A stretch of DNA of 41,289 nt from Escherichia phage vB_EcoM_ECOO78 (KY705409); one strand, 5' to 3'; counted from the first letter of the stretch, positions 2,685-20,074 are shown. Made by a program: numbers and translations. Notes: a model not told the origin generated them from the sequence alone.

Positions 2685-3017
2685 TCAAGCGCGGTTTGGT
2701 CCGGTTGGGATGTCGGTAAATCCTCTGCGCTTCCACAGGTGCCAAAGTCGCCATGCTATGCGTGCGCGTGGCATTGTTTTGAAGGTTCCCAGTTTGTGTT
2801 TCTGCTTGCCATCAATGCACGTCACCTGCCAACCACAAGCCAGCCGCTGACAGCCAGGGATGCGTGCCAGGTGCAGGTTGCGGTTGCTGATTGCCGTGAC
2901 CTCCGGTTTTGGTTTAGCCTCCACTGGTGCTGGTTTTGGCTTCTGCTTCTGTTTCGCCTGCTTAACAAAAGCGCGCCACAGAATATCTGTTGCCAGGCTC
3001 ATGGCTTGCCGCTTCAC
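2685..3017 (-). CDS. Hypothetical protein with Lys/Pro-rich linker
   Basis: 110 aa ORF; ATGA overlap with upstream DUF551 gene; no domain recognised. Confidence 0.45.
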   Translation of the reverse strand: MKRQAMSLATDILWRAFVKQAKQKQKPKPAPVEAKPKPEVTAISNRNLHLARIPGCQRLACGWQVTCIDGKQKHKLGTFKTMPRARIAWRLWHLWKRRGFTDIPTGPNRA

Positions 3018-3841
3018 TCGCTGGTGGGATTAGGCGTGTCGAACCACATAACAACGTCGCCTGTATATTGGTGCTTTGTATGGTGGTAACTGGCAATCAG
3101 CCAGGTATCTTTATGATTGATGCGCCCAACTCGCTGGGAACCATCAGAAAGCATCACAGGAACGTCACGGAAGCGATCTGGAAGCCTTTCGCTGCAATTC
3201 ACCCACTGGTCATGATGTTTGTTCGCATTGATGCCAGCCAACGATTCGAACTGCTGCGCGGTGTTGTCTGTTTCATCACTGATGGCAGACGAACGCAGAC
3301 ACTGGACAGCCAGGCGATACGCCTTAAGGCTGATTTCCTGATGCGTGCTCAATGCGCCTTTGCGTTCACCGATTTCCAGGCTTTTGATGCGCGTTTCAAG
3401 GTTTTCCAGCAGCCTATCATCAGTTACCACCGGCGCTGGCTTTTCACGCACATCCGCCAGCAGGATTCTGAAAGCTGCCAGCATGGCACGTTCCGGCACA
3501 TAGTCATCAGCATAGAACGCATCAAGCGCACGCATCATGGCGTTTAGTGATGGGTCAGCATCGCTTACCACCGGCACTGGCTGCACGTCCCCAACCAGGC
3601 GGGTTATTTCGCTTTCCAGGCGCTGGCCAAGCTCTGTTTTAGTGCAGTGCTCGGCCCATTCGTTGTTTTCCAGCAGGGCCACCACGTTGCGCACGTCATC
3701 ATCAACGCCGCCCATTGAATCGGCCAGCATCCGCAAACACGCCAGTTCAAATTCGCCGCGCAGTGACAGTTCACCGTGGCTGTTGACCATTTCCAGTTCC
3801 GCTATGCGCTCGCGCACGTTGTCAATCGTTACTTGTTTCAT
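3014..3841 (-). CDS. Ea22-like protein with C-terminal DUF551 domain
   Basis: C-terminal WVNCSERLPDRFRDVPVMLSDGS...WLIASYHH resembles DUF551; acidic coiled-coil N-terminal region. Confidence 0.55.
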   Translation of the reverse strand: MKQVTIDNVRERIAELEMVNSHGELSLRGEFELACLRMLADSMGGVDDDVRNVVALLENNEWAEHCTKTELGQRLESEITRLVGDVQPVPVVSDADPSLNAMMRALDAFYADDYVPERAMLAAFRILLADVREKPAPVVTDDRLLENLETRIKSLEIGERKGALSTHQEISLKAYRLAVQCLRSSAISDETDNTAQQFESLAGINANKHHDQWVNCSERLPDRFRDVPVMLSDGSQRVGRINHKDTWLIASYHHTKHQYTGDVVMWFDTPNPTSE

Positions 3842-3875
3842 CGGGTGTTACCTCGTTTTTATTGGCCCACACTGG
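3842..3875 (-). promoter_or_regulatory. Conserved translation-initiation cassette: hairpin, CCAATAA, AACGAGGTAACACCC, ATG (copy 1)
   Basis: Minus strand ccccaccagtgtgggCCAATAAaaACGAGGTAACACCCgATG; 17-mer GGGTGTTACCTCGTTTT also at 9945-9961. Confidence 0.5.
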
Positions 3876-3888
3876 TGGGGAATGGTGG

Positions 3889-4866
3889 TTATGCTACAAC
3901 AGAATTGCTACTTGCCTGGTTATCGTTTGCGGCTGCTGCTTCCATTATGCGCCCCTGCGCTGTCTGGAAATAGGTTTCATCAAGTTCAATTCCTATGAAG
4001 TTACGGCCTTCATTGATGCAGGCGACTCCTGTTGACCCGCTCCCCATAGTGAAATCTAGAACCGTTTCGCCAGGGTTTGAATATGTCCTGATGATGTCAG
4101 CCAGCAGTGCTACCGGCTTCTGTGTTTGGTGAAGGCCGGTATAATCCTTTTTGTACTGAAGAACGTTAGATTTGTATTTTGCACCATCCGCCAGGTTAAA
4201 CCTGCGGGCAAACCTGCGGTCAATTTCTAACATTTCAGCATAAGTCATAAGCCAGTCACACACACTAAGCCCATAGTGCGCAATAATCTGGTTGTATGTC
4301 TTTTCAGTACACAGCCCGAACTGCGTTGATTCAACATAAAAAAAGTGTTCCGCGCGCCTGTGACCTAAATCAGTGTTTATCTGCTTTATATTTCTGCCAA
4401 TGTATTCCATGATTTTTTTGGCATAATCCCTTAGCGGATGCTGTGCCAGCGTGTCATATTTCTTGAAGAACACCACTAAATCTTCAAAGTATGAAACAGG
4501 CGCTTTATTTACCAACAGCGAGTTAGAGAAATGGTCTTTCAGCCACATTAGTCGATAACTGAAAGGCAGATTTCCATGCGCCGCTGTGATTAACTTGCTG
4601 GTGTAAGGTTCCTGGCTGAACAGAATAAGAGCGCCGTTAGTTCGCAAAACGCGGTTGCATTCTTCAAAAATGGCCTGCGGAGAAATAGCGTTATCCCATT
4701 CAGCGTTCGCAATTCGTGAATAGCGTTCTTCACCCTTTCCCATTCCGCCAGCGGTGCCATACGGCGGATCACACAGAACCAAATCAACGCTACCGGCTGG
4801 AATAGACTTCATAACTTCCAGGCAATCACCTAAATGCAATTCGTATTTATTCACAATGCTACCCAT
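3889..4866 (-). CDS. DNA methyltransferase (N6-adenine/N4-cytosine type, beta-class motif order)
   Basis: DPPY catalytic motif near N-terminus (LVLCDPPYG) and SAM-binding FTMGSGSTGVAC near C-terminus; AT-richer than surroundings. Confidence 0.85.
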   Translation of the reverse strand: MGSIVNKYELHLGDCLEVMKSIPAGSVDLVLCDPPYGTAGGMGKGEERYSRIANAEWDNAISPQAIFEECNRVLRTNGALILFSQEPYTSKLITAAHGNLPFSYRLMWLKDHFSNSLLVNKAPVSYFEDLVVFFKKYDTLAQHPLRDYAKKIMEYIGRNIKQINTDLGHRRAEHFFYVESTQFGLCTEKTYNQIIAHYGLSVCDWLMTYAEMLEIDRRFARRFNLADGAKYKSNVLQYKKDYTGLHQTQKPVALLADIIRTYSNPGETVLDFTMGSGSTGVACINEGRNFIGIELDETYFQTAQGRIMEAAAANDNQASSNSVVA

Positions 4867-4918
4867 TACTTTGTTTGGTTTGTTTGGTTTGTCTCGTTTT
4901 CGATAGATGAATTCTATA

Positions 4919-4959
4919 TTTACTTATGTAAATGATATAATCGTTTATACCTATCAATA
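4919..4959 (-). promoter_or_regulatory. Conserved bipartite upstream element TATTGATAGGT-N15-ATTTACATAAGTAAA (copy 1, upstream of methyltransferase)
   Basis: Minus-strand sequence read directly; near-identical element at 10001-10042. Confidence 0.5.
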
Positions 4960-4990
4960 AAAACAAAACCCGCCGAAGCGGGTTATTATT
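4958..4990. terminator. Bidirectional intrinsic terminator (UUCG/CGAA-loop hairpin)
   Basis: aaaaacaaaacccgccgaagcgggttattatt: 5-bp GC stem, 4-nt loop, A/T-rich tracts on both sides; immediately after primase-helicase stop. Confidence 0.6.
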
Positions 4991-7299
4991 CAAAACGGTG
5001 AATTGTCATCTGGTCGCCGGTAATCCGGCTGCAACACCTTCGGCGGCAGGTTGAAGAACCGCCCGTTTTTCGTCTTGCGCGGTTCCTGCCCGGTCAGCTT
5101 GCGCAGCACGTTACTGCAATGCGTGGCCTGTGACTTGTTCGGCTTATCAAATCCGATTTCCTGCAACACCTGGCTGGCGGTATGTTCGCGGTAGGCGCTG
5201 ATGCGTTCGCTGCCCCACTCAAAGCGCGCCAGTATCATTTCCTCTACCGGGTCAATGGATTCGTGTTCCTTGTTGACGCCTTCCAGCATGGCTTCTTCAT
5301 CACGATCCAGCCACCAGCGTTCGCCGTCACGGTACAGTTGCGCCACTTCTGCCCATAACTGTTGCGTGTCGATGTCGTGGGCGTAGTTCACGCCGGTCAC
5401 CGGAATGGTCCACCAGCGAACGTTCCCGGTGTCATCGGCCAGGAAGTGTTTGGGGTTCACTGACGCAAAAAACACCGTTCGGCGCTGGTACTTCGATTCA
5501 AGCCGGTCATAAGGGCGGCGCAGCATGTCCACGTCAGAACTGATGAAGGATTTCAGCCTGGCAATGTCAGCCTTGCGGAACGTTGCATCTAGTTCGCCCA
5601 GCTCAACCATCCAGTGGCCAATCGCGGTGGTCACGCTGTCTTTGTTGCTAGGGTCGATGGTCGCGCCATCTTTCACCAGGTCGCGCATGGTAGGCGGCAG
5701 CAGTGCTTTGAACCAGGACGTTTTCCCCAATGACTGGTCACCCTGTAACACCAGCACGCCTTTGGACCAGAACCCTGTTGGCTTCATGACGGCAGCCACG
5801 GCAGAAATCAGCCAGCGGCGCACCATCATCAGCACCAGGCCACGGTCAAAGCCTTGCGGCGTGGTCAGGGTGTCAACCAGGTCATAAATGCGGCTGACGC
5901 CATCCCAGGGCCGTGACGTGATGAATTCAGCAGCCGGGTTGTAACGATTGGCCACGCCAATCAGCTTGATGTAATCGCCCACGTCACCTTTTGGCATACC
6001 GTTGCGGGCACACAGGCTGGAAACTTCCGCCAGTGAACAGTTGGCCGCAGCGTCAACGCCGTAGTCACGCCCTGGAATGGTCACCACCACATCTTTGCTG
6101 ATTTCGTTATAACGCGCCGTGATGCCGTACTGGTCCAGCAGCCATTCCAGGTTTTCCCAGGTGCTTAATGGCTTTTGCTGGTGGCTCATGTGCGGGTACA
6201 TGAACGGGTTGACCGTGGCATCCAGCGGCAGAAAGTTGTCATTTGCCGGTTCAGGTATCGCGTCGTTAATCTGGCGCTTAACTTCTGCCAGCCCTTGCAT
6301 ATTGTGCAGGTCGTTAAAGTCGGTCGGCTTGTCGCTCAGTGCTGCGAACTTCGGAACCACCAGCAGGCCACCGCATGTGGTTGCGGCCTGGCGCGCGTAG
6401 TGAACGCCATCGTTCTGCTTGCCATCTTCGTGCCACTGGTCGTTATCGGCTGCCACAACAATTGTTGCGCGTCCGAACTGCTGGCGCATCAGCTTGGCCA
6501 CGGTCGGCACGTTACCGGCATCGAACGCCACTACAACGCAGTAGCCTGTTGCCTGGTGGATTGACGCGCCGGTTGAATAGCCTTCACAGATGACAATGAC
6601 CGGGTTTGCGCCAATCGGCTTGCCGCCGATGACGTGGAAGCATCCACGCTTCTGGCCGCCAGGCAAATAATCACGGTCACGCCCTAGCTGTGGGTTTTCG
6701 TTCGGGAAGATGGCCTGCAAACTGGTGATCTGCCCGTCAATGTTACGCACAGGAACCAGCAGCGCGCCATCAATGCTGCGCTTTTCTGTCCAGAACCGCC
6801 CAACACGCAGGCCAAACGCCTGCACCTTCTTGCGCTGCAAATAGGGGTGTTCATCGCCGTCCAGTTCGGTGGCTGATTCCCATATGTTGCGCGCCTGTTC
6901 GGCTGCCTGCGCCATACGTTCGGCACGGCGCTGCTGCTCTGCCTTTTCTTCGGCTTCGCGCTTGCGCTTGCGTGCTTCGATTTCTTCCGCTGACAGCGGG
7001 GTGCGTTCTGCGTCGTTCAGGGAAAAGCCGAACTGCTGCGCCTCACCAATCAGGGTGCCAATGCCAATGCCGCCGTGACGCTTCACTGATTTCCAGGTGT
7101 CGCGTGCGTCTTTGCTGTTGTACTTGTCAGACTGGCGTGACCAGTCATTCCAGACGGTGAAACCGCCGTCGCCTAATTCCGATTTGACCGCCATCGCCAT
7201 GCGCACCCATGTTTCACGGTCGCAACCGGCGTCGATGTAGGAAAGTGCTTCTGCAATTTCCTGTTCGGTCAAATCCTTATAGTTTTGTTGTGCACTCAT
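4990..7299 (-). CDS. Primase-helicase (P4 alpha-like: primase C-terminal-like region, TOPRIM, D5/SF3-type P-loop NTPase)
   Basis: TOPRIM-like VIVICEGYSTGASI...VAADND; Walker A LVLQGDQSLGKTSW; 769 aa. Confidence 0.8.
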   Translation of the reverse strand: MSAQQNYKDLTEQEIAEALSYIDAGCDRETWVRMAMAVKSELGDGGFTVWNDWSRQSDKYNSKDARDTWKSVKRHGGIGIGTLIGEAQQFGFSLNDAERTPLSAEEIEARKRKREAEEKAEQQRRAERMAQAAEQARNIWESATELDGDEHPYLQRKKVQAFGLRVGRFWTEKRSIDGALLVPVRNIDGQITSLQAIFPNENPQLGRDRDYLPGGQKRGCFHVIGGKPIGANPVIVICEGYSTGASIHQATGYCVVVAFDAGNVPTVAKLMRQQFGRATIVVAADNDQWHEDGKQNDGVHYARQAATTCGGLLVVPKFAALSDKPTDFNDLHNMQGLAEVKRQINDAIPEPANDNFLPLDATVNPFMYPHMSHQQKPLSTWENLEWLLDQYGITARYNEISKDVVVTIPGRDYGVDAAANCSLAEVSSLCARNGMPKGDVGDYIKLIGVANRYNPAAEFITSRPWDGVSRIYDLVDTLTTPQGFDRGLVLMMVRRWLISAVAAVMKPTGFWSKGVLVLQGDQSLGKTSWFKALLPPTMRDLVKDGATIDPSNKDSVTTAIGHWMVELGELDATFRKADIARLKSFISSDVDMLRRPYDRLESKYQRRTVFFASVNPKHFLADDTGNVRWWTIPVTGVNYAHDIDTQQLWAEVAQLYRDGERWWLDRDEEAMLEGVNKEHESIDPVEEMILARFEWGSERISAYREHTASQVLQEIGFDKPNKSQATHCSNVLRKLTGQEPRKTKNGRFFNLPPKVLQPDYRRPDDNSPF

Positions 7300-7311
7300 A
7301 GAACCCCGATT

Positions 7312-7542
7312 TTATGGCCTGTTAGCGCGCCATATGGCCAGTGCGCGTTGTTCTAGTTCTTCGCGGGCTGTTGCGCCGCGCCGTTTTTCTATCGCTGCCA
7401 GCAGGGTGCGCCGTGCTTCAATGGTTGGCTGTTTCAGGACGTATTTGGCTTCGCATTCCAGCAACCATTCCCGGCTATCGCTCAACACATCGCGCCCATC
7501 GTGCAGCGTCACTGTGGTGGGCTGCCAGGTACAGGCGTTCAT
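7312..7542 (-). CDS. Hypothetical protein
   Basis: 76 aa ORF in operon context, overlapping neighbour. Confidence 0.4.
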   Translation of the reverse strand: MNACTWQPTTVTLHDGRDVLSDSREWLLECEAKYVLKQPTIEARRTLLAAIEKRRGATAREELEQRALAIWRANRP

Positions 7543-7727
7543 TTTGCTGCCTGCGCGTTCAGTTTCAGTTCAAGCAATTCAAGCTGGTGGGTCGGAATGA
7601 CTTTCCCGCCCTTACACCGCCAGATAAGCACCGTTTGTTCAGTGCGCCCAAGTAAACGGCCAACGTCGCGGCAGGTTAAGCCATGTTCAGCCATAATGTT
7701 GTGAAGTCGTTCGGTCCTTTCGTCCAT
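7539..7727 (-). CDS. Small HTH DNA-binding protein (Cro/XRE-like regulator candidate)
   Basis: Start MDERTERL with GAGG RBS 6-9 nt upstream; HTH-like LTCRDVGRLLGRTEQTVLIWR. Confidence 0.45.
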   Translation of the reverse strand: MDERTERLHNIMAEHGLTCRDVGRLLGRTEQTVLIWRCKGGKVIPTHQLELLELKLNAQAAK

Positions 7728-7807
7728 AGTAATAGCCTCGTAATAACAATGCGCCCATAGTACAGGGCGCATTTCCGAAAGTAAATATCTTTTGAAATAA
7801 TCTTACT

Positions 7808-8032
7808 TCACCGCGAAGCGCGCGGCATCACGAAACGGAAACCGGCCTGGTGCTTCATGGCCATTGCGCCTGCCAGGCGTATCAGTTCAGCGAACGGGTC
7901 TTTGCCGATGGCTGACGTGGTGCGGTACTGTTGCGCCGCGTAGTCAGCCGCGTGCTGTGCTGTGCCAGGTGATGCGCCTTGCTTCACCAGTTCGGCCATG
8001 ACTTGTTTTTTGATGAAGTCTACCGGGTTCAT
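7808..8032 (-). CDS. Hypothetical protein
   Basis: 74 aa ORF, same-strand operon context. Confidence 0.4.
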   Translation of the reverse strand: MNPVDFIKKQVMAELVKQGASPGTAQHAADYAAQQYRTTSAIGKDPFAELIRLAGAMAMKHQAGFRFVMPRASR

Positions 8033-8035
8033 GGT

Positions 8036-8335
8036 TCACGCCCCGCGCTGTTTGAGAAAAACCCAACTCAGCCAGTGTTCATATTGGCCCATCCAGTGCC
8101 GCAGACGAAAGCGCCTGTTGTTTATGGCGGCCATGCCTTCACCGTCATTTTTGTGCTTATGAACACGGTGCAAAACGCGGTCATACTTTTCATCGGATGA
8201 ATCACTATGGCCACGCAGCATTACTGCGGTTTCTTCTTCATTGATGAAGATAGTGAATTTACTGAATCCAAGCTGCTGGCCAGCCTCGACAACAATTTTT
8301 AGCCACTCATGCTTTGGCAGTGGTTTACCTGTCAT
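8036..8335 (-). CDS. Hypothetical protein
   Basis: 99 aa ORF, same-strand operon context. Confidence 0.4.
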   Translation of the reverse strand: MTGKPLPKHEWLKIVVEAGQQLGFSKFTIFINEEETAVMLRGHSDSSDEKYDRVLHRVHKHKNDGEGMAAINNRRFRLRHWMGQYEHWLSWVFLKQRGA

Positions 8336-8568
8336 TTTGCGGCCCTCCGGTTGCGCTGGTGACGTGCTTCACGGCGCATGGCTGCAATGCCGGTGAATCG
8401 TGATTTTCGCGGCCCTGGCTTCGGATAGTCCAGCACCACTTGCATTGACCGCACCTTTGGACGCCAGCCAGCGCGCACCAGCGCCATTTGAAAACCCAGG
8501 CTGATTTCCCTGGCTGATAACTTCCAGGCGTCAACCAACCGCTGCATTGCTACTTTGAGAATATTCAT
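8332..8568 (-). CDS. Hypothetical protein
   Basis: 78 aa ORF; ATGA overlap with upstream small ORF. Confidence 0.4.
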   Translation of the reverse strand: MNILKVAMQRLVDAWKLSAREISLGFQMALVRAGWRPKVRSMQVVLDYPKPGPRKSRFTGIAAMRREARHQRNRRAAK

Positions 8569-8729
8569 TCAACACCCCACGTTCTTTTCAGGTTTTCCAC
8601 TTCAAGCGCCGTCAACATGCCGTAACGGTTCAGATTCCACATTGCCGTTTTGGCCGCCAGGAACGTGATGTGGTTCCTGGTCGCCAGTGCTTCTGAAAAC
8701 AGTCTGCGAATGCTTTCTATTGTCATCAT
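8565..8729 (-). CDS. Small hypothetical protein (54 aa, MMTIESIRRLFSEALATRNH...), below ORF-track size cutoff
   Basis: Read manually; stop overlaps downstream start (ATGA); GGAG upstream; conflicts in part with alternative-frame ORF 8602-8808, which is ATGA-coupled to the VRR-NUC stop. Confidence 0.3.
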   Translation of the reverse strand: MMTIESIRRLFSEALATRNHITFLAAKTAMWNLNRYGMLTALEVENLKRTWGVE

Positions 8730-8804
8730 GGTTTATCCACTCCATCATTGATTGCCCGGTTTGTTCGCTGTAGCGCAGCGCTTCTGCTGCTACGTGTTTT
8801 ATGC

Positions 8805-9215
8805 TCATTTTCCGAACACCAGTTTTTCAGCGTCATCCACTGACCGCACAACACCGGCGCGGCCCCCGTTGTCGTTCACCGCGTTGATGAAGTTTCGCTG
8901 CAACGGTGACACGCGGGCACCGTCTTTGACTTCCAGGCCGGTGAAGATGGCCACTTTCTGCCCCACCATGTCAGGCGTGATTTCCACGCTTACCAGGCCG
9001 AACAGATCGGAAAACCCTGGCGGCAGCCCGGTGTCAAACGGCCTGGCGTTTTTCAGCAGCACGTCACGCGGCCCCATCACAACCGGCATCTGGCGCGGCA
9101 CCTTCACAATGTCATTACTGGTGTACGCCTTGCCCACGTTGGCGCGAAACAGCAGGCAGCGGCCTGCCAGTGCGTTGCGGATTGCATTCTGCAACGCGTG
9201 TTCTTTGTTAGCCAT
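8805..9215 (-). CDS. VRR-NUC domain nuclease (PD-(D/E)xK fold)
   Basis: Pattern LLFRANVGKAY...GLPPGFSDLFGLV...LEVKDGARVSPLQRNFINAVNDNGGRAGVVRSVDDA typical of phage VRR-NUC proteins. Confidence 0.7.
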   Translation of the reverse strand: MANKEHALQNAIRNALAGRCLLFRANVGKAYTSNDIVKVPRQMPVVMGPRDVLLKNARPFDTGLPPGFSDLFGLVSVEITPDMVGQKVAIFTGLEVKDGARVSPLQRNFINAVNDNGGRAGVVRSVDDAEKLVFGK

Positions 9216-9607
9216 TAGAAATTCGCCCCCGGATATTCACCAGAATTGCAGCGCATCCACACACGCAGGCCGATTTGTTCAGGGCGAAGGCTTGCCGATT
9301 GCGGCCAGAACACCTGGCGCGCCACCCAAATAATGCGGTTCTGGTTGTTGTTGGCCAGCAGGGTGACCACGCCCTGTTCGCCTGCGCCTTTGTCGCGCAG
9401 TTCAGCGATTTTGACGGCGATTTTTTGCAGTTCCAGGCAGTAGTAAGTCTGGTCAATGTCCTGCAATTCCGGCTGTGGTGCCGGTTCCTGTTCTTCCGTC
9501 ACCTGGCAGTTGTCCTTTGCAGGGTCCATGCCTGGCAGGCATTCGCGTGCCTGTGCAGTGACGCTGGTGGCCGCCAGGATGAAAGCGGCGATGATAAGTT
9601 TTTTCAT
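9215..9607 (-). CDS. Secreted/periplasmic protein with signal peptide and four Cys
   Basis: N-terminus MKKLIIAAFILAATSVTAQA (SPI-type signal, AQA cleavage); no lipobox. Confidence 0.55.
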   Translation of the reverse strand: MKKLIIAAFILAATSVTAQARECLPGMDPAKDNCQVTEEQEPAPQPELQDIDQTYYCLELQKIAVKIAELRDKGAGEQGVVTLLANNNQNRIIWVARQVFWPQSASLRPEQIGLRVWMRCNSGEYPGANF

Positions 9608-9651
9608 GGTTCCACCTGTGAGAAATGCCCGGCGAACCGGGCAGGGAATGT

Positions 9652-9942
9652 TTACTGCTGTTCGAACCAGTCAGCCAGTTCTCGCAACTGCGCAGCAATG
9701 GTTTTCTTGTCATCGTTAGACGAAAACACCAGGCCGTCACTGCAATGTTCACCGTCATTTTTCATGCTGTCAGGTCCAAATGCGATGATCACGCCGTGTT
9801 CTTGTTCGCTGTCAACGGTCAGCTTGAAATCACTGGTTGTTGCAATGAAAAACTTGCAGCCATCTGCGTCATGAATCGTGCCTTCAAAAGCGACTGGCAG
9901 TTCGTTAAAACCAAAACCATTGCGGATATTTACAGTAGTCAT
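9652..9942 (-). CDS. Hypothetical protein
   Basis: 96 aa ORF preceded by conserved AACGAGGTAACACCC cassette. Confidence 0.5.
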   Translation of the reverse strand: MTTVNIRNGFGFNELPVAFEGTIHDADGCKFFIATTSDFKLTVDSEQEHGVIIAFGPDSMKNDGEHCSDGLVFSSNDDKKTIAAQLRELADWFEQQ

Positions 9943-9980
9943 TTGGGTGTTACCTCGTTTTGTTATTGGGCACCATCTGT
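9943..9980 (-). promoter_or_regulatory. Conserved translation-initiation cassette: hairpin, CCAATAA, AACGAGGTAACACCC, ATG (copy 2)
   Basis: Minus strand ccggcacagatggtgccCCAATAAcaaaACGAGGTAACACCCaaATG; hairpin arms differ from copy 1 but stay complementary. Confidence 0.5.
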
Positions 9981-10000
9981 GCCGGTGAAATAATAATACC

Positions 10001-10042
10001 TTTACTTATGGAAATATCGCCAATGGTTTAAACCTATCAATA
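10001..10042 (-). promoter_or_regulatory. Conserved bipartite upstream element TATTGATAGGT-N16-ATTTCCATAAGTAAA (copy 2)
   Basis: Minus-strand sequence read directly; matches element upstream of methyltransferase. Confidence 0.5.
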
Positions 10043-10051
10043 CTTCACTAT

Positions 10052-11467
10052 TCATCGCTTAAACCTTCTTCCGCCCATCTTCGCTATGGCCCAACCTGAT
10101 GGGTTCGGCAGCCCGCGTTTCATCGCCAGGGCGGTCAGTGCGCCAATATCCTTGCAAGCGTCCTCCTCGCGTTTCATTTTGGCGCGCAGGCTTTCTTTGG
10201 CGCGTTCGTCCATCTCTTTCAGTTCGCCTTCCGCCACTTCAATTTCTTTGGCTTCGGCCTGTAGTTCCTTCTGGCAGTGCGGGCACTTCGGCGGCAGTGG
10301 TCGGCGGATGGCGTTGAAACAGCCTTTGCAGATGACTGGCGGCGGTGGACCACCAGCACTGCTGGACTTGCTGCCGCTATCATCGCCAGACAGTGACCAT
10401 TCCCGTTCATCGTCAGGGAAGCCATGACGCAGCGCATTGCCTGCATGGTCCAGGATGATGGCGGTTTTGCCTTTGGACGGTCGCAACACGCGGCCATCTT
10501 TCTGCAAAACCAGCGACAATGATTGTGTGGGCTGCGCGTCAATCAGGCAGTCAATCGTCACGTCAGTCTGTGCGATAGCTGACAGGTCGAAACCTTCACC
10601 GAACAGCGACACGTTGAAAATCACATCCAGGTTGTCGTTGGCATAGTCCTGAATGATGCGCTTGCGTTCCGCCTTATCGGTGCCGCCATCCAGGTGCGCG
10701 GCGCGGATGCCTGAATCAATGAATGCCTGCGTTAAGTGGCGGCTGTGCGCGATGTTGACCGCAAAGCCAACCGTTTTCATGCCCCTGGCGTATTTCAGCC
10801 AGTGGCTGATGATGTTGCCGGTTAGTTTCGGCTTATCCATCTTCTCGGCGGTTTCTCCTTTTGAGAAATCGCCCATCTGTTTGCGTACACCCTTCATGTC
10901 AGGGATGTCCGGGCAGAACATGCGATAATCAGACAGGTGGCCGTTATCCATCAGCCAGCGCACCGATGGCCCCAACACGATGTCATCAAAGTGGTCATCC
11001 AGGCCGGTGCCGTCCAGGCGCTTTGGCGTGGCTGACAGGCCGATTACATACGCGCCATTCTCGAACAGCCAGGCGTTGACGCGCGCCCATCCAGCCGCGC
11101 CACAGTGGTGCGCTTCGTCCATGATGGCCAGCTTAGGAGCTGGCAGGGTGTGCAGGCGGTTTTTCAGGGTGTCGATGCTGCACACCTGCACCCCGGCGCG
11201 CAGGTTCATGGGATAGCCTGCGGCAATAAAGCCGTGGTCAATGCCGAACTTCCTGAATGTCAAACTGGTCTGTAATACCAGTTCAGCGCGGTGGCAAATA
11301 AACCACACCTGCTGGCCTTTGGCCGATGTTTCCCCAGCCATGTATGACGCCAGCGCAGTTTTGCCCGCGCCTGTTGGTGCCTGCAATAACACGCGGCGGT
11401 TGCGCCGCATAGAAAGGCGCGCCTTATTGATAATGTCGGATTGATAGTCCCTAAGTATTACGCCCAT
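10052..11467 (-). CDS. Superfamily-2 DEAD/DEAH-box DNA helicase
   Basis: Walker A LLQAPTGAGKT, DEAH box MDEAHHC, motif III GLSATP; C-terminal CxxC...CxxC zinc-finger-like segment. Confidence 0.85.
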   Translation of the reverse strand: MGVILRDYQSDIINKARLSMRRNRRVLLQAPTGAGKTALASYMAGETSAKGQQVWFICHRAELVLQTSLTFRKFGIDHGFIAAGYPMNLRAGVQVCSIDTLKNRLHTLPAPKLAIMDEAHHCGAAGWARVNAWLFENGAYVIGLSATPKRLDGTGLDDHFDDIVLGPSVRWLMDNGHLSDYRMFCPDIPDMKGVRKQMGDFSKGETAEKMDKPKLTGNIISHWLKYARGMKTVGFAVNIAHSRHLTQAFIDSGIRAAHLDGGTDKAERKRIIQDYANDNLDVIFNVSLFGEGFDLSAIAQTDVTIDCLIDAQPTQSLSLVLQKDGRVLRPSKGKTAIILDHAGNALRHGFPDDEREWSLSGDDSGSKSSSAGGPPPPVICKGCFNAIRRPLPPKCPHCQKELQAEAKEIEVAEGELKEMDERAKESLRAKMKREEDACKDIGALTALAMKRGLPNPSGWAIAKMGGRRFKR

Positions 11468-11504
11468 AATTATCGTTCATTCGCCATCATTTAAAGTATT
11501 CGCA

Positions 11505-11534
11505 ATTGTATGTTACTACATGGCGACGTTGCAA
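11505..11534 (-). promoter_or_regulatory. Candidate sigma70-type leftward early promoter (-35 TTGCAA, 18-nt spacer, -10 TACAAT)
   Basis: Hexamers read on minus strand; inverted repeat TTACTAC/GTAGTAA overlaps spacer and -35. Confidence 0.4.
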
Positions 11535-11548
11535 CCAGTAGTAATGTT

Positions 11549-11560
11549 CATTGACGTCAA
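11549..11560. promoter_or_regulatory. Perfect 12-bp palindrome ATTGACGTCAAT (candidate operator)
   Basis: Self-complementary 12-mer in the divergent intergenic region. Confidence 0.4.
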
Positions 11561-11659
11561 TCAAGCCGCGATGTGCAAAAAACGCATAGCTGATGTACAG
11601 CTAAGGTTTGTTGATTAGCGAGCGTGACGCTGATCTAAACAATGTTAGTTACAAATAAG

Positions 11660-11689
11660 TTGACAGTATAACAACACGTCAGCCATAAT
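11660..11689 (+). promoter_or_regulatory. Candidate sigma70-type rightward early promoter (-35 TTGACA, 18-nt spacer, -10 CATAAT)
   Basis: ttgacagtataacaacacgtcagccataat, about 50 nt upstream of the exonuclease start. Confidence 0.45.
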
Positions 11690-11740
11690 TCACCGCAGTT
11701 AATCCGAATTCATGTTAAATAATAATTGCGAGGTAACATA

Positions 11741-12883
11741 ATGAAACCAGGAGTTTACGAAGGTATTCCCAACGCTGAATACCACGGCGGACCAGGCATC
11801 AGTAAATCTGGCCTGGATTTGGTGCACCGCAGCCCGATGCACTACAACGCTGTTGTGACTGCTGCTAATGACCGCACGCCAACACCAGCGCAGGAAATCG
11901 GCACGGCTGTGCATATGGCAATTCTTGAACCGGAAGAATTCGCAAAAACCTATTGCCTGGCGCTGCGCCGTCCTGATGTGCCTGATGCTATTGATGACCG
12001 TGAAGTGCTGGTGGAAATGGTCAACAAGCTGAACGAAGGCCGCCTGCCTAAGCTGCTGACTGGTGGCAACAAAGACGAACTGGTTGAACGCATCCTGGAA
12101 AACCAGCCTGTTGAAACCTGGACTACTGAACAGCTTAACGCGATGAAAGCGCCAGACCTGAAAGAAATCATCAACCAGTTGAATATTGACCGTCCTGGCA
12201 AACTATCCACCAGCGGCAGTCGTCATGAGCTGGCCAACCTGCTGCGCGCCAACGGCGTTGAAGTCACACTGTGGTCAGATGTGCTGGAAGAATGGCAGCG
12301 CAATAACAGCGAACGCAAAGTGCTATCACCGGAAGCGTTTGAACAAATTTTTGCCATGCGTGACGCGGTAATGAATCATCCGGCAGCGTTCGCTATCCTG
12401 CACCACGTCAAAGACATCATTGGTGACTTGAAAACCACCGAAGATGCCAGCCCGGAAGGGTTCGCAAAATCAATCGCCAACTGGCGCTATGACGTGCAAC
12501 ACGCATACTACATGGACGGCACGCGTCTGGCTCTGGAACAGGGCAAGTGCACGCCTCCGCACGAAGGCAAAGCAGAATTATCAGTTTACTGGACTGATCC
12601 GGTGACCGGTGTTCTGTGCCGCTGCCGCCCTGATTTCTGGCGTGGTTATCCTAAACACTTTGCGTTTATCGCCGTTGAGAAAAAACCGCCTTACGCAGTT
12701 GGTGTTTATGTACTGGATAGCGAAGGCGTAGAAATTGGCCGCGCACAATACCAGCATGATTTGCGTGTCTACGCTGAATGCGTGCGCACAGGTGTTTGGC
12801 CTGGATACGGCGATAAAATCCAGACCATCAGCCTGCCAGCGTGGCACGCCAACAAAAACGCCCACCTGGTTGGTGCGGCTTAA
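11741..12883 (+). CDS. PD-(D/E)xK recombination exonuclease (RecE/exonuclease VIII-like) with inserted SAP/HeH-like motifs
   Basis: Start MKPGVYEG with GAGG RBS 8 nt upstream; N-terminal YHGGPGISKSGL...RSPMHY motif; precedes Sak4-like gene. Confidence 0.6.
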   Translation: MKPGVYEGIPNAEYHGGPGISKSGLDLVHRSPMHYNAVVTAANDRTPTPAQEIGTAVHMAILEPEEFAKTYCLALRRPDVPDAIDDREVLVEMVNKLNEGRLPKLLTGGNKDELVERILENQPVETWTTEQLNAMKAPDLKEIINQLNIDRPGKLSTSGSRHELANLLRANGVEVTLWSDVLEEWQRNNSERKVLSPEAFEQIFAMRDAVMNHPAAFAILHHVKDIIGDLKTTEDASPEGFAKSIANWRYDVQHAYYMDGTRLALEQGKCTPPHEGKAELSVYWTDPVTGVLCRCRPDFWRGYPKHFAFIAVEKKPPYAVGVYVLDSEGVEIGRAQYQHDLRVYAECVRTGVWPGYGDKIQTISLPAWHANKNAHLVGAA

Positions 12884-15725: not shown

Positions 15726-15751
15726 AAAAACCCCGCCGAAGCGGGGTTTTG
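15726..15751. terminator. Intrinsic terminator after rightward early operon
   Basis: aaaaaccccgccgaagcggggttttgtg: 6-bp GC stem, 4-nt loop, T-tract. Confidence 0.65.
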
Positions 15752-16228
15752 TGTCACGTGACGCTGTGATGCGAGATACAGATCACCTGCCTTATTGGAA
15801 TCACTTGTCGGGTAAGTTCCAGTCTGTGCGAATGTCGCACTGGGATGCGCTTTCACGTTGCGAGGTAACACCCTGGGGGTTGGAAGTGTTCGCAAAAGCG
15901 CATCACGGTGCGTTGTGGTGCTGTGCATCAGCGCTTCCTTCGTCGCCTTGGTGAGCTGCAACCACACCAACTAGCATTTGGATTTACCACAACGTAAAGA
16001 GCACTTTCATCGCTGCAACATGACGGTAAATAGGATTCACTGCATCACGTACAAAATGCTCTTAACTGTTGCGTGCCGTCCTTTCACGGCGGTCATCGTG
16101 TATCGCTCGACAGCGTGACTCTCTATAACTGACAATATAATCCTATATCACTCCAGTGCATTCTGCAACCATATTTACCATTTATTCATCTCCTCGATCA
16201 TCTTCTGTAGGTAGTCCACTCTGTAGGT

Positions 16229-18123: not shown

Positions 18124-18825
18124 TCATTGTTTACGGTAACCTTTGCCAGAAAGCCAAATTGAAATTTCTGTGGCAACACCAATGTCAAGACTGGTTTTTG
18201 TAGTGGCCGCAAAGTTAGCCAGTTCGTAAAGTATTTCATCACGCGCTTCACATTCATTCAGGTCGGCTTCTAACTGCGCATCGCTGGGTTTGACAGCATC
18301 GCGCTTCACATCAATGCAAGCGGTTTCTAATTCATTCTTATCCACCAGGCGGTAAGCAATGATGTCACCGCTACTTCCATGATGCGACCATACAAAATCG
18401 CCTGCTCTGTCATTACTGAAATGAAGCGGGCTAGGTTTCCGGAATTTGACTTCAACAATTGTGTCACTATCCACCGGACATTCACCACCATGCCAATCAA
18501 TCCAGCCGTTATTGCCAAGCACGGCTTGACTGGCTGCCATCGCGGATTCGTATTTTTCGCGAGTTACAATTGATATGTTCCAGTCATTAGCAGTAATGTA
18601 ATGGCGGAAGTTTCCTTCAAATGGTCTGTCGCCATAAATCCAGTCATCACCATCTTTATTACTGCACCATTCGCCTGCTTTAATATGCAAAAAATTGATT
18701 GATTTTGAAAATTTTACAGTTCCGTCAGAATCCTGCACTGCATAGTTAGCCGCTTTAGGCCACCCGCCAACTTTAGGAAGTGTTTCGACCAGTATTTGCA
18801 GCAGGGTTTTATTTGATGTGTTCAT
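18124..18825 (-). CDS. Hypothetical protein (AT-rich moron candidate)
   Basis: 233 aa ORF; lower GC than flanks; own upstream AT-rich promoter-like region plus hairpin and GAGGTAA RBS. Confidence 0.5.
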   Translation of the reverse strand: MNTSNKTLLQILVETLPKVGGWPKAANYAVQDSDGTVKFSKSINFLHIKAGEWCSNKDGDDWIYGDRPFEGNFRHYITANDWNISIVTREKYESAMAASQAVLGNNGWIDWHGGECPVDSDTIVEVKFRKPSPLHFSNDRAGDFVWSHHGSSGDIIAYRLVDKNELETACIDVKRDAVKPSDAQLEADLNECEARDEILYELANFAATTKTSLDIGVATEISIWLSGKGYRKQ

Positions 18826-18919
18826 GTGGGCATTACCTCGTTATTTATCCGGGCAGGTCATCCGCCCGGTTAAGGTAATGATATACGATGATGTAGAATG
18901 ATTGCAACAATGTTTGTTG

Positions 18920-20074
18920 TTATTTTTCTTCGATGACGTGACCAGGGCCGTCATCGCCTTCGTTAATGTCCTTTTCTTCTATCACGTGACCAGGGCCATC
19001 ATCGTCTGGCGGGTCGCTTTCTTGCGGCTTCTTGCGCTCGATGATTTGCACATGCGGTTCTTCTTCGCTGTTTGGCTTCGTTGCTTCCACGTCGCAAGAA
19101 TAACCGTTGTCATCCATCCGGTGATCTGCGCGGGTAATCAGCCATTCGCCATCAATGCCATCGCGGAACCCCACCAGCACCAGCTTGCATTCAGCGGCAA
19201 TGGTCGGGTCACCCGGCAGCGTCACGGCAACAGTCACCTGGTTGCGCTGACGCTTCGACAGTTCGGCTTTGGCTGCGTCCAGTGCCATTGCCTGCGTTGG
19301 GTAGTATTTTCCAATGCGTTTTACCGGCTCACCTTCTCCCACCTTCACTTCGTTGCGCGCGGCCTTCTTCGTCACCTGGTAGTAAGCCACCACCGTGCCT
19401 GCGTTTTCGCGCTTCTGGCTGGTTAGCCGGAATGCGGTGCAATCCTGCGCCGTCAGCGTTATGGTTGGCAGTTCTTCGCCGCTGGCCGTCTTACCTTCGC
19501 CGCGCTTCGTGACCGTGATTTTGCCGCCTGATGGTTTCACTACGCCGTCATATTTCTTGGCCAGTCGCAGCAACAGGTTCAGGTCAGATTCATCGGCCTG
19601 GTCGGTGTGGGGTAGGGTGATTTTGGCCATGCTCTCTGACACGGCTGATTCCATGCCGTGTTCTTCGGCAATCTTCTTCACCATGTCGCCAAACTTCGTG
19701 CCTTTGGTCCAGCTACGTGATTTCTGTGTTTGCAGGTCGGTTTTGCCGCCATTCGATTTGTCATAGGTGGCAGCACGCGCCCTGATGGTCATGGTGCCTG
19801 GCCAGCCAGCTAATTCCACTTCGTCACAGATGAACAGGCCCATGCGTTGGGTCCAGTTGTCATAACCCAGGAACAGTTCCAGTTCTGCGCCTGTTTCCGG
19901 CATCTGGATTGGGTTGGCCGGTTCATCATCAGCCAGGCTGATTTCCAGCGTGTCAGATTCCAGCCCCACGCCATCAGACAGGCTAAGGCTTATCAGACGT
20001 TCATTGATTTTGGCTGTGATGTCATCGCCGTTGGCCAGTACGCGAAACGCTGGCGCAATTCCAGTCAATCCCAT
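18920..20074 (-). CDS. Tail protein D (P2 gpD-like late control/tail protein) with C-terminal tandem repeat
   Basis: 384 aa; position after U and X in P2-type order; C-terminus DDGPGHVIEEK repeated twice. Confidence 0.75.
   Translation of the reverse strand: MGLTGIAPAFRVLANGDDITAKINERLISLSLSDGVGLESDTLEISLADDEPANPIQMPETGAELELFLGYDNWTQRMGLFICDEVELAGWPGTMTIRARAATYDKSNGGKTDLQTQKSRSWTKGTKFGDMVKKIAEEHGMESAVSESMAKITLPHTDQADESDLNLLLRLAKKYDGVVKPSGGKITVTKRGEGKTASGEELPTITLTAQDCTAFRLTSQKRENAGTVVAYYQVTKKAARNEVKVGEGEPVKRIGKYYPTQAMALDAAKAELSKRQRNQVTVAVTLPGDPTIAAECKLVLVGFRDGIDGEWLITRADHRMDDNGYSCDVEATKPNSEEEPHVQIIERKKPQESDPPDDDGPGHVIEEKDINEGDDGPGHVIEEK

Follow-up and report, generated by a model that had tools for sequence, protein, structure and literature searches.

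A recurring hairpin and ribosome-binding-site module at accessory-gene boundaries in Escherichia phage vB_EcoM_ECOO78 and its relatives

The T7 gene 10 leader and the 5' untranslated region (UTR) of ompA share a 5' stem-loop, an A-rich unpaired stretch, a strong Shine-Dalgarno (SD) sequence and a spacer of about 8 nt, and translation of the IS10/Tn10 transposase is reportedly subject to fold-back inhibition, as described by Davis, Simons and Kleckner in 1985. Cluster K mycobacteriophages carry the start-associated sequence (SAS), a 13-bp repeat (GGGATAGGAGCCC) that is present in 11-19 copies per genome and lies 3-8 bp before start codons (Pope et al. 2011, PMC3203893), and upstream of SAS are the extended start-associated sequences (ESAS), which are 17-bp imperfect inverted repeats with a subcluster-specific consensus (PMC3203893). 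In T4-type phages, promoter-early stem-loop (PeSL) cassettes combine a working terminator stem-loop with a consensus sigma-70 promoter downstream of it (Arbiol et al. 2010, PMC2839356; PMC4122927). Here we describe a module of hairpin, linker and ribosome-binding site in Escherichia phage vB_EcoM_ECOO78 (KY705409). The stretch of DNA analysed, 41.3 kb in length and referred to as the window, is essentially the complete genome of this Jilinvirus-type myovirus. The module stands at the 5' edge of accessory genes at three junctions: behind the helicase gene (site A), in the variable region that follows the primase gene (site B), and behind the last tail gene, tail gene D (site C). In the explanation we prefer, to which we give an even chance, it is a lineage-specific, reusable and portable translation-initiation and 5'-UTR module of Jilinvirus-type phages that also serves as a homology patch for swaps of accessory genes.

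One relative, Escherichia phage vB_EcoM-ep3, has 97.7% identity to positions 3000-11000 of the window (92% query coverage, reverse orientation). Further relatives are HeidiAbel_Bas97, Salmonella phage PT1, Alux-21, ECO1230-10, ET-SD-TH, Klebsiella phage KA2-1, Enterobacter phage Arya and Serratia phage MQ-4, which together with ep3 and two IMG/VR contigs (IMG56 and IMG58) made up the comparison set (n=11). The two exact copies of the cassette belong to the rightward early operon, which is read from the minus strand of the window in the order helicase gene (11467-10052), small genes, primase gene (7299-4990), variable region, late activator gene and lysis genes.

Copies of the module in the window and in relatives

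A 17-mer, AAAACGAGGTAACACCC, is present exactly at 3843-3859 and at 9945-9961 on the minus strand. The copies stop 1 nt short of ATG 3841 (open reading frame (ORF) 3841-3014) and 2 nt short of ATG 9942 (ORF 9942-9652), respectively, and upstream of each we found CCAATAA and a perfect 5-bp GC hairpin with arms that differ between the two copies. An earlier reading of the window from the sequence only had described the repeated 17-mer before two start codons together with the preceding CCAATAA and hairpin, and both descriptions were confirmed. The gene at 3841-3014 had also been called a DUF551 gene; its match to that family (E = 0.0094, 17.2 bits) is below the Pfam cut-off of 22.

The site B module (3842-3888, minus strand) occupies the entire 47-nt spacer between the methyltransferase stop codon (3889-3891) and ATG 3841. 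It runs from a CCACCATT flank through the hairpin CCCAC-cagt-GTGGG (3879-3866), the CCAATAA linker and the 17-mer (3859-3843) to a single nucleotide and the ATG, and its SD sequence, GAGGT at 3854-3850, is within the 17-mer. At site A (9943-9992, minus strand), the hairpin GGCAC-agatg-GTGCC (9983-9969) is followed by the linker CAATAAC, the 17-mer (9961-9945), AA and ATG 9942, and the SD sequence GAGG (9956-9953) is again within the 17-mer. A third copy with 3 mismatches, ATAACGAGGTAATGCCC, was found at 18828-18844 (minus strand). At up to 3 mismatches, the window thus holds 3 matches to the 17-mer compared with 0.05 expected, and none of 100 shuffles reached 3. It is true that GAGGTAACACCC-ATG occurs without a hairpin in unrelated viral contigs (L013, L015, L025 and L037) and that metagenome matches are mostly random. 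Nevertheless, with this excess of copies and with a 45-nt architecture that is kept across relatives and between non-homologous flanks, it is hardly credible that the cassette reflects chance, or merely a strong SD context that has no modular meaning.

The sequence-only reading had further listed related GAGGTAA-type starts before the exonuclease gene and the gene at 18124-18825. Both exist, and the latter has the full arrangement with a 6-8 bp hairpin, but the exonuclease gene does not. Its start, TTGCGAGGTAACATA-ATG (11726-11743, plus strand; gene start 11741), has GCGAGGTAACA in common with the cassette, and inspection of the sequence showed neither a hairpin nor CCAATAA; the start falls within the 5' UTR that belongs to the leftward early promoter TTGACA-18-CATAAT (11660-11689). 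The leader of the methyltransferase gene contains AAAACGAGACAAACC, a degenerate echo of the 17-mer. A fourth near-copy, GTTGCGAGGTAACACCC (15857-15873, plus strand), is 14/14 identical over GCGAGGTAACACCC except for the first base. It apparently lies within a small ORF homologous to Bas97_0031, with no start codon at the right distance and with a terminator upstream (15727-15750), and is kept in ep3, HeidiAbel, ECO1230-10, IMG56 and IMG58. This near-copy may be a relic cassette, or its ORF may be mis-called.

All close relatives have the same arrangement at the three orthologous sites: a GC hairpin, a (C)CAAYAA A/C-rich linker, GAGG(T/A)AA(C/T)(A/G)CCC, 0-2 nt and ATG. In general, the hairpin has 5-8 bp and the unpaired linker 6-15 nt (typically CCAAYAA plus A's), the SD sequence is GAGGT or GAGGA, and an 8-10 nt spacer (AAYRCCC) leads to the start codon. 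In the variable region, the arrangement widens to a 45-50-nt intergenic unit of stop codon, CCAMC, hairpin, CCA-rich linker, SD sequence and ATG, and the SD half of these units differs, being GGAAAGGAGT in ECO1230-10, GGGAAATAACC in KA2-1 and GGGGCGAAACC in MQ-4. Therefore, the 17-mer represents just one form that the 3' half of a more general hairpin module can take. The sequence-only reading, centred on the 17-mer, is narrower than this general module, and it missed the promoter- and operator-like elements upstream of sites A and C.

The exact cassette is uncommon beyond this lineage, and it is absent from 5,426 complete E. coli genomes. Pattern scans of viral and metagenome sequences gave mostly chance matches, and the genuine matches were Arya itself, one IMG58-like contig, Lastavirus Klebsiella phages (LASTA and SopranoGao) and a CRISPR spacer. 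A GTDB genome scan using the helicase returned distant relatives only, and in the more distant Iiscvirinae contigs the arrangement after the helicase gene is not kept. A search of the whole window against Rfam 15 gave no match at the gathering score, and the three sites scored at most 15 bits with E of at least 0.68, which is chance level.

Hairpin pairing, mosaic junctions and the possible role of the module

Of the 20 distinct variants of the module that we compared, 19 retain 5 or more contiguous pairs, with 12 different inner stems in the set. Matching the 5' arm of one variant to the 3' arm taken from a different variant yields just 1.4 pairs on average. The pairs were counted on a hand-registered table, as MAFFT could not hold the differing arms in register, and alignment tools were used for site C only. 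At site C, CCGGGC/GCCCGG is replaced by the compensatory CCCGGC/GCCGGG in IMG56, IMG58 and KA2-1, and at site A GTGCT replaces GTGCC in the 3' arm with a G.U pair retained. The loops are often of the UNCG or GNRA type (ttcg, tacg, gcaa). The earlier proposal that the arms differ yet stay complementary is thus borne out by the 12 stems and by the compensatory changes at orthologous sites. Since the arms are not conserved in sequence, it is the structure, and not a single DNA-binding protein, that is suggested.

The same inverted repeats could in principle act in DNA, as protein-binding or recombination sites (integron-attC-like or PeSL-like) or as parts of promoters. The modules lie exactly at mosaic junctions, promoter-like hexamers overlap sites A and C, the counts of G.U and A.C pairs leave the strand open, and GC-rich stem-loops at ORFan boundaries have been proposed as recombination targets in T4-type phages (PMC2839356). 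However, 12 different stems with arms that are not sequence-conserved fit no single DNA-binding protein, the stems have only 5-8 bp, stable RNA tetraloops are frequent, the B-type copies lack a -10 hexamer bearing T at the last position, and the pairing at site C between the SD sequence and an upstream complement (the anti-SD, described below) makes sense in RNA only. We therefore give a DNA-level element very little credence.

The cassette hairpins are not intrinsic terminators, because they have no U-tract while terminators with T-runs occur in the same operon (4984-4967 and 2679-2662, minus strand). Like intrinsic terminators, they are GC-rich hairpins in intergenic spacers on the coding strand, often with UUCG-type loops. 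Unlike them, the cassette continues with CCAAUAAAAAC-like sequence instead of a U-tract (the stems are followed by CCAATAAAAAC, CAATAACAAAAC and ATAAATAAC), the stems have 5-8 bp as compared with 7-10 bp in the window's own terminators, and the terminator scan lists none of the cassette hairpins. Three other candidates were rejected. RNase III needs far longer stems than those of 5-8 bp; the GGA of a CsrA site is found in the site C loop only, not in the SD sequence or in other copies; and in the case of a tRNA-like minihelix (hairpin plus NCCA), the copies disagree in the base that follows the stem.

To examine the junctions, we scored the identity of each cassette and its flanks to those of the relatives, a scoring in which unrelated sequence gives a background of about 56-60%. 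For site B compared with Arya and IMG58, the upstream flank (56-60%) and the downstream coding sequence (58%) are at background, and the cassette has 83-84% identity. For site A compared with six relatives (HeidiAbel excluded), the helicase 3' end has 84-95%, the cassette 83-90% and the downstream coding sequence 59-62%, except for 97% in Arya, because Arya has the window's cargo gene. For site C compared with nine relatives, the values are 50-92% for the 3' end of gene D, 90-98% for the cassette and 59-68% for the downstream coding sequence. In Arya, IMG58 and Alux-21, site B is a conserved island with both flanking genes unrelated; in seven relatives, site A is followed by three unrelated cargo genes (PHROG families phrog_28115, phrog_1965 and phrog_19244); and the site C cassette is followed by three kinds of cargo N-terminus. 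One cassette copy is found in Klebsiella phage LASTA, which belongs to the unrelated genus Lastavirus, and the LASTA cargo gene is not homologous to the site A gene of the window. A cassette that forms an island of 83-98% identity beside unrelated genes, with a copy in an unrelated phage genus, is what the earlier idea of a portable module had anticipated. In addition, the Arya site A copy has the AATGCCC spacer typical of site C, which suggests that copies may exchange sequence.

If the module works as we prefer to explain it, the linker and SD sequence would form a self-contained ribosome-binding site, from which a new ORF could be translated independently of the upstream gene. As RNA, the hairpin would sit where the ribosome footprint begins on its upstream side (-38 to -25), and would there both hinder decay and insulate the site structurally. 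Downstream of the promoter-like P element described below, it would form a stem-loop at the very 5' end of the transcript, like those of the T7 gene 10 and ompA leaders, and inside operons it would separate neighbouring cistrons. A module of about 45 nt that stays constant while the cargo changes could also provide the homology patch for gene exchange, presumably by homologous recombination. The sequence, its conservation, the co-varying arms, the mosaic junctions, the lack of a U-tract and the predicted folds are results, and from them we infer the RNA-level role of the hairpin, promoter activity and recombination as the route of exchange.

A different division of the same parts has to be considered. 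The hairpin may belong to the 3' end of the upstream unit, where it would serve as an mRNA 3' stabiliser or an attenuator or be a decayed terminator, and the ribosome-binding site may belong to the downstream gene, with the identity of the 17-mers left by recent recombination or gene conversion and with no joint function. In B-type units the distance from stop codon to hairpin is also fixed (TAA, CCAMC, 1-4 nt, hairpin); in HeidiAbel the hairpin differs while linker and SD sequence follow the cargo gene; a CCCCAC hairpin occurs without the GAGG cassette in HeidiAbel and PT1; a U-run follows the MQ-4 orthologue of the site C hairpin; several late genes are followed by intercistronic hairpins; and the site-C-type spacer at site A of Arya is as copy conversion predicts. 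On the other hand, the hairpin is also found between the P element and the SD sequence with no ORF end near, at site A in 7 phages and after the primase gene in ECO1230-10, KA2-1 and IMG58. The distance between hairpin and SD sequence is constrained (6-15 nt from the hairpin end to GAGG, median about 11), and it holds without an upstream ORF, as in the post-primase copies of the three phages just named. Because this distance is kept downstream of a promoter-like element alone, the hairpin is linked more closely with the initiation region that follows it than with the gene before it. Moreover, the helix of anti-SD and SD sequence at site C and in LASTA encloses the hairpin, which makes it part of the translation-initiation region there. 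This separate-parts explanation is the main alternative, and we consider it somewhat unlikely.

The conserved linker raises the further question of whether it is read by a protein. In a translational operator, an RNA-binding factor would recognize the single-stranded CCAAYAA/(ARN)n linker beside the hairpin, with Hfq (distal face) or S1 (as enhancer) as candidates. ARN or AAYAAYAA repeats are the ligands of the Hfq distal face. Runs of 2-4 A-R-N triplets occur in the linkers, the site A linkers AAUAACAA of the window and AACAACAA of ep3 both match AAYAAYAA, the linker is conserved though predicted to be unpaired (probability 0.8-0.97), and the spacer AAYRCCC is conserved beyond the needs of the SD sequence. 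But ARN triplets arise by chance in any A-rich linker, site C and site B of Alux-21 have only two in register, and we identified no candidate RNA-binding protein in the window. A structure-specific protein is unlikely as both loops and stems vary, and a CsrA-type GGA is confined to the loop of site C. An operator of this kind appears improbable.

Promoter-like elements and the closed ribosome-binding site at site C

A second repeat, ATTGATAGGTWTAAACSATT, has two copies in the window, at 10041-10022 and 4958-4939 (minus strand), where none is expected. It belongs to what we call the P element, which every relative has in exactly two copies, one behind the helicase gene and one immediately behind the primase terminator. 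The layout is the repeat, a palindrome ATTTAC-N4-GTAAAT, 2 bases and a hexamer that is nearly always TAnnnT, and the element reaches about 50 nt past each copy of the repeat. The hexamer has a fixed offset and a sequence that varies between copies; TATTAT, TAGAAT, TAGTAT, TATAGT and TAATAT occur. About 7-9 nt past the hexamer is the GC hairpin or, in some phages, a G-rich non-coding stretch. Copy 1 (9993-10041, minus strand) is just past the helicase stop codon (10052-10054) and contains ATTGATAGGTTTAAACCATT, a degenerate palindrome ATTTCC-ATAA-GTAAAG (10015-10000) and a -10-like TATTAT (9998-9993) that ends 9 nt before the hairpin; the promoter scan matched TTGATA-16-GATATT at 10040-10013. 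Copy 2 lies upstream of the methyltransferase gene and together with the intrinsic terminator of the primase gene (4984-4967, T-run) spans 4905-4984 (minus strand); it has ATTGATAGGTATAAACGATT (4958-4939), a perfect palindrome ATTTAC-ATAA-GTAAAT (4933-4918) and TAGAAT. Sites A and C have hexamer matches of 9/12 in the promoter scan and the conserved TAnnnT at a fixed offset, and site B has none. These features suggest that the P element is an operator-controlled promoter with a weak -35 and a putative start site, the transcripts of which would begin with the hairpin.

At up to 2 mismatches, the palindrome ATTTAC-N4-GTAAAT has 5 matches in the window compared with 1.0 expected. It is also present (7786-7771) at the start of a small repressor-like gene (7539-7772, 77-aa product) and at the leftward early promoter (11688-11703), and may represent the operator set of a phage repressor. 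The G-rich stretch that can follow the P element is conserved over about 100 nt (ATAGGGCGGCGGCAGGATGCAGCCGGAGAGGAGCAACGCAGGGGCTTG..GTGTCAGGATTCCCAACCGTGAGGCCGAACATTGGACACTCGCCG) with no ORF start nearby. It was found in KA2-1 (about 5560-5700), in another sequence (L058, about 11480-11600), after the primase gene in Arya, PT1, HeidiAbel and Alux-21, and after the helicase gene in MQ-4. It may be a structured RNA; a comparison with Rfam up to E = 1 gave no match, and the window itself lacks the stretch. Farther along the early operon, a non-coding region of about 370 nt (about 2290-2660), bounded by the terminator at 2679-2662 and by the late activator gene (start 2272), contains about 12 copies of GTCACC/GGTGAC, for example TTGGTCACC TTGTCACC TAGTTGGTCACC TAGTTAGTCACC. 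The copies are also present in relatives and look like iterons or binding sites for origin or late-gene control.

Site C (18826-18929, minus strand) follows tail gene D (stop codon 18920-18922) and precedes a 233-aa ORF (ATG 18825, gene 18124-18825) and a ParB-like gene. Its upstream half consists of the palindrome CAACAA..TTGTTG (18929-18895), a -35-like TTGCAA (18907-18902), a -10-like TATCAT (18883-18878) and the anti-SD CATTACCT (18880-18873). Its downstream half has the hairpin CCGGGC-ggatgacct-GCCCGG (18869-18849), the linker ATAAATAAC and AGGTAATG (18838-18831), the last of which is within ATAACGAGGTAATGCCC (18844-18828). A conserved sequence upstream, ATCATTACCT, complements the SD region AGGTAATG exactly, and the resulting helix of two 8-nt arms (18880-18873 and 18838-18831) encloses the GC hairpin. 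In the window, 70 nt of site C have a predicted folding energy of -23.5 kcal/mol (z -4.0; 0/200 shuffles as stable), and the values are -34.4 kcal/mol for site C of KA2-1 (z -3.9; 1/200), -36.0 kcal/mol for that of Arya (z -4.9; 0/200) and -14.9 kcal/mol for the LASTA copy (z -3.8; 0/200). The predicted probability that the SD sequence is unpaired is 0.00-0.10, and site C ranks 46 among 50 window genes in openness. The helix is retained differently in three lineages: IMG56 and KA2-1 have 10 bp through CTTCG:CGAGG, and in LASTA it is shifted to UUACCUUGU:ACGAGGUAA. In the site C alignment, 98% of the cells are paired, and the anti-SD helix is conserved with no two-sided covariation.

The site C copy thus looks translationally closed in the predicted folds, and site C is the only site where the models give a conserved anti-SD helix that is stabler than chance. 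At sites A and B, the predicted probability that the SD sequence is unpaired is 0.3-0.7. The folds give the earlier suggestion of a regulated translation-initiation region no support at the two exact copies, where the SD sequence is predicted to be open (site A) or average (site B), and lend it support at site C only. There, the added anti-SD would close the ribosome-binding site in any transcript that contains it.

The anti-SD overlaps the -10-like TATCAT, with TTGCAA 18 nt upstream and the CAACAA/TTGTTG palindrome beside the -35; the hexamers are conserved and their spacer varies. A transcript starting at these hexamers would have no anti-SD, and its SD sequence is predicted to be open. Site C may therefore be imagined as a promoter-embedded fold-back switch in which the -10 region doubles as the anti-SD. 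Read-through from the late operon would be silent, and transcripts from its own operator-controlled promoter would start past the anti-SD, carry the hairpin as a 5'-terminal protection and be translated. The unit of about 65 nt would then be mobile between Jilinvirus and Lastavirus, and the early region, built from the P element and the hairpin module, would be a natural plug-in expression system for orphan genes. We regard this extended proposal as speculative and unlikely to hold as a whole; the poor -35 of LASTA counts against the fold-back switch.

A CRISPR array of the type I-E-like kind in a metagenome contig (OKVX01005984.1, 397-700; 29-nt repeat GGTTTATCCCCGCTCACGCGGGGAACAC.., 61-nt period, at least 5 repeats) contains a 32-nt spacer that matches the site C cassette at 31/32 positions (protospacer window 18827-18858, minus strand). 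Therefore, some host has targeted the site C cassette.

Several observations weigh against the preferred explanation of a portable initiation module. At the site C equivalent of MQ-4 (1790-1915), TTGCAT-17-TATCAT is kept, the hairpin CCCGGC..GCCGGG is followed by TTTTT and is terminator-like, and the 233-aa cargo is absent; this also speaks against the fold-back switch, and it hints that the site C hairpin may descend from a late-operon terminator. In HeidiAbel, the linker, SD sequence and cargo are the same, but the hairpin before them is another one and is preceded by an extra ORF. Some breakpoints, at least, therefore fall between hairpin and linker, and in this phage the linker and SD sequence travel with the cargo gene, the hairpin possibly being part of the upstream unit. 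Folded alone, the short hairpins of the two exact copies are not above chance, with predicted energies of -6.8 and -7.8 kcal/mol, z-scores of -1.5 and -1.9, and an equally good fold in 13-14 of 200 shuffles, so that these two hairpins gain their significance from the comparison with relatives only. A general opening of the ribosome-binding site by insulation is unsupported, as the openness ranks among the 50 window genes are 5 at site A, 29 at site B and, as given above, near the bottom at site C. With 3 G.U and 2 A.C pairs among the variants, neither the strands nor the RNA and DNA levels are separated. The relatives are few (about a dozen closely related genomes), many module variants are paralogues with uncertain homology of the arms, and our literature search found no transcript, ribosome or stability data for these little-studied phages. 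Finally, stable hairpins with UUCG-type loops and partial U-runs occur after late genes at 34546-34527, 27621-27604 and 23495-23476 (minus strand). These follow the major capsid gene, a tail-fibre-region gene and the tail tube gene, respectively, with the next start 20-30 nt on, and probably serve the late operon as internal attenuators or mRNA stabilisers.

Comparison with known systems

If the preferred explanation is true, the module shows how a small phage gives acquired orphan genes an immediate and context-independent expression. It would pinpoint the positions of gene swaps in this lineage and would aid annotation (start codons and operon boundaries) as well as phage engineering. The 45-nt part of hairpin, linker and ribosome-binding site, and the closed form at site C, are possible insulated or read-through-proof ribosome-binding sites for synthetic biology in E. 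coli. The module would be a Gram-negative counterpart to the still unexplained SAS/ESAS repeats and not a new principle of gene regulation; as a joint for regulation and recombination in phages it is genuine, though of a rather common sort.

Like SAS and ESAS, the cassettes are short asymmetric repeats that include the ribosome-binding site and are placed in one orientation a few bases before the starts of some non-structural genes. Some of them have an inverted repeat ahead of them at a variable spacing, and by analogy a role in translation initiation may be suspected in both. Nevertheless, the motif here is AAAACGAGGTAACACCC, with 2 exact and 1-2 degenerate copies, and is not a SAS. Neither are the hairpins ESAS: the 17-bp consensus arms of ESAS suggest recognition by a protein, whereas the module arms of 5-8 bp with unconserved sequence suggest structure only. 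Host, phage lineage and motif are all distinct, and the positional logic alone is in common.

The module resembles PeSL cassettes in being a small conserved composite motif with a GC-rich stem-loop that flanks ORFs of unknown function and offers a homology patch for shuffling, and, like PeSLs, it is found in variable regions and at mosaic breakpoints. It differs in that the cassette hairpin has no U-tract, and so is not the terminator of a PeSL, and lies downstream of a promoter-like element or has none. In addition, the module includes a conserved ribosome-binding site, which PeSLs do not, and its promoter and recombination are only putative. The PeSL order of stem-loop and then promoter is matched in the window only by the primase terminator and P element (4984-4905).

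For site C and LASTA, a likeness to IS10 may be drawn, as sequence upstream of the likely transcription start would pair with the ribosome-binding site, so that only transcripts reading in from outside would be closed. The differences are that the site C promoter is proposed from hexamers only, the LASTA -35 is poor, the MQ-4 hairpin is terminator-like, and the helix has no two-sided covariation.

The T7 gene 10 and ompA leaders, in which the parts come in the same order, offer a model of how the module may work at sites A and B. There is no sequence relationship to these leaders, and the B-type copies are intercistronic, so that a 5'-terminal position would need RNA processing. By analogy, it is nonetheless leaders of the T7 gene 10 and ompA type that the module would most resemble in its working.

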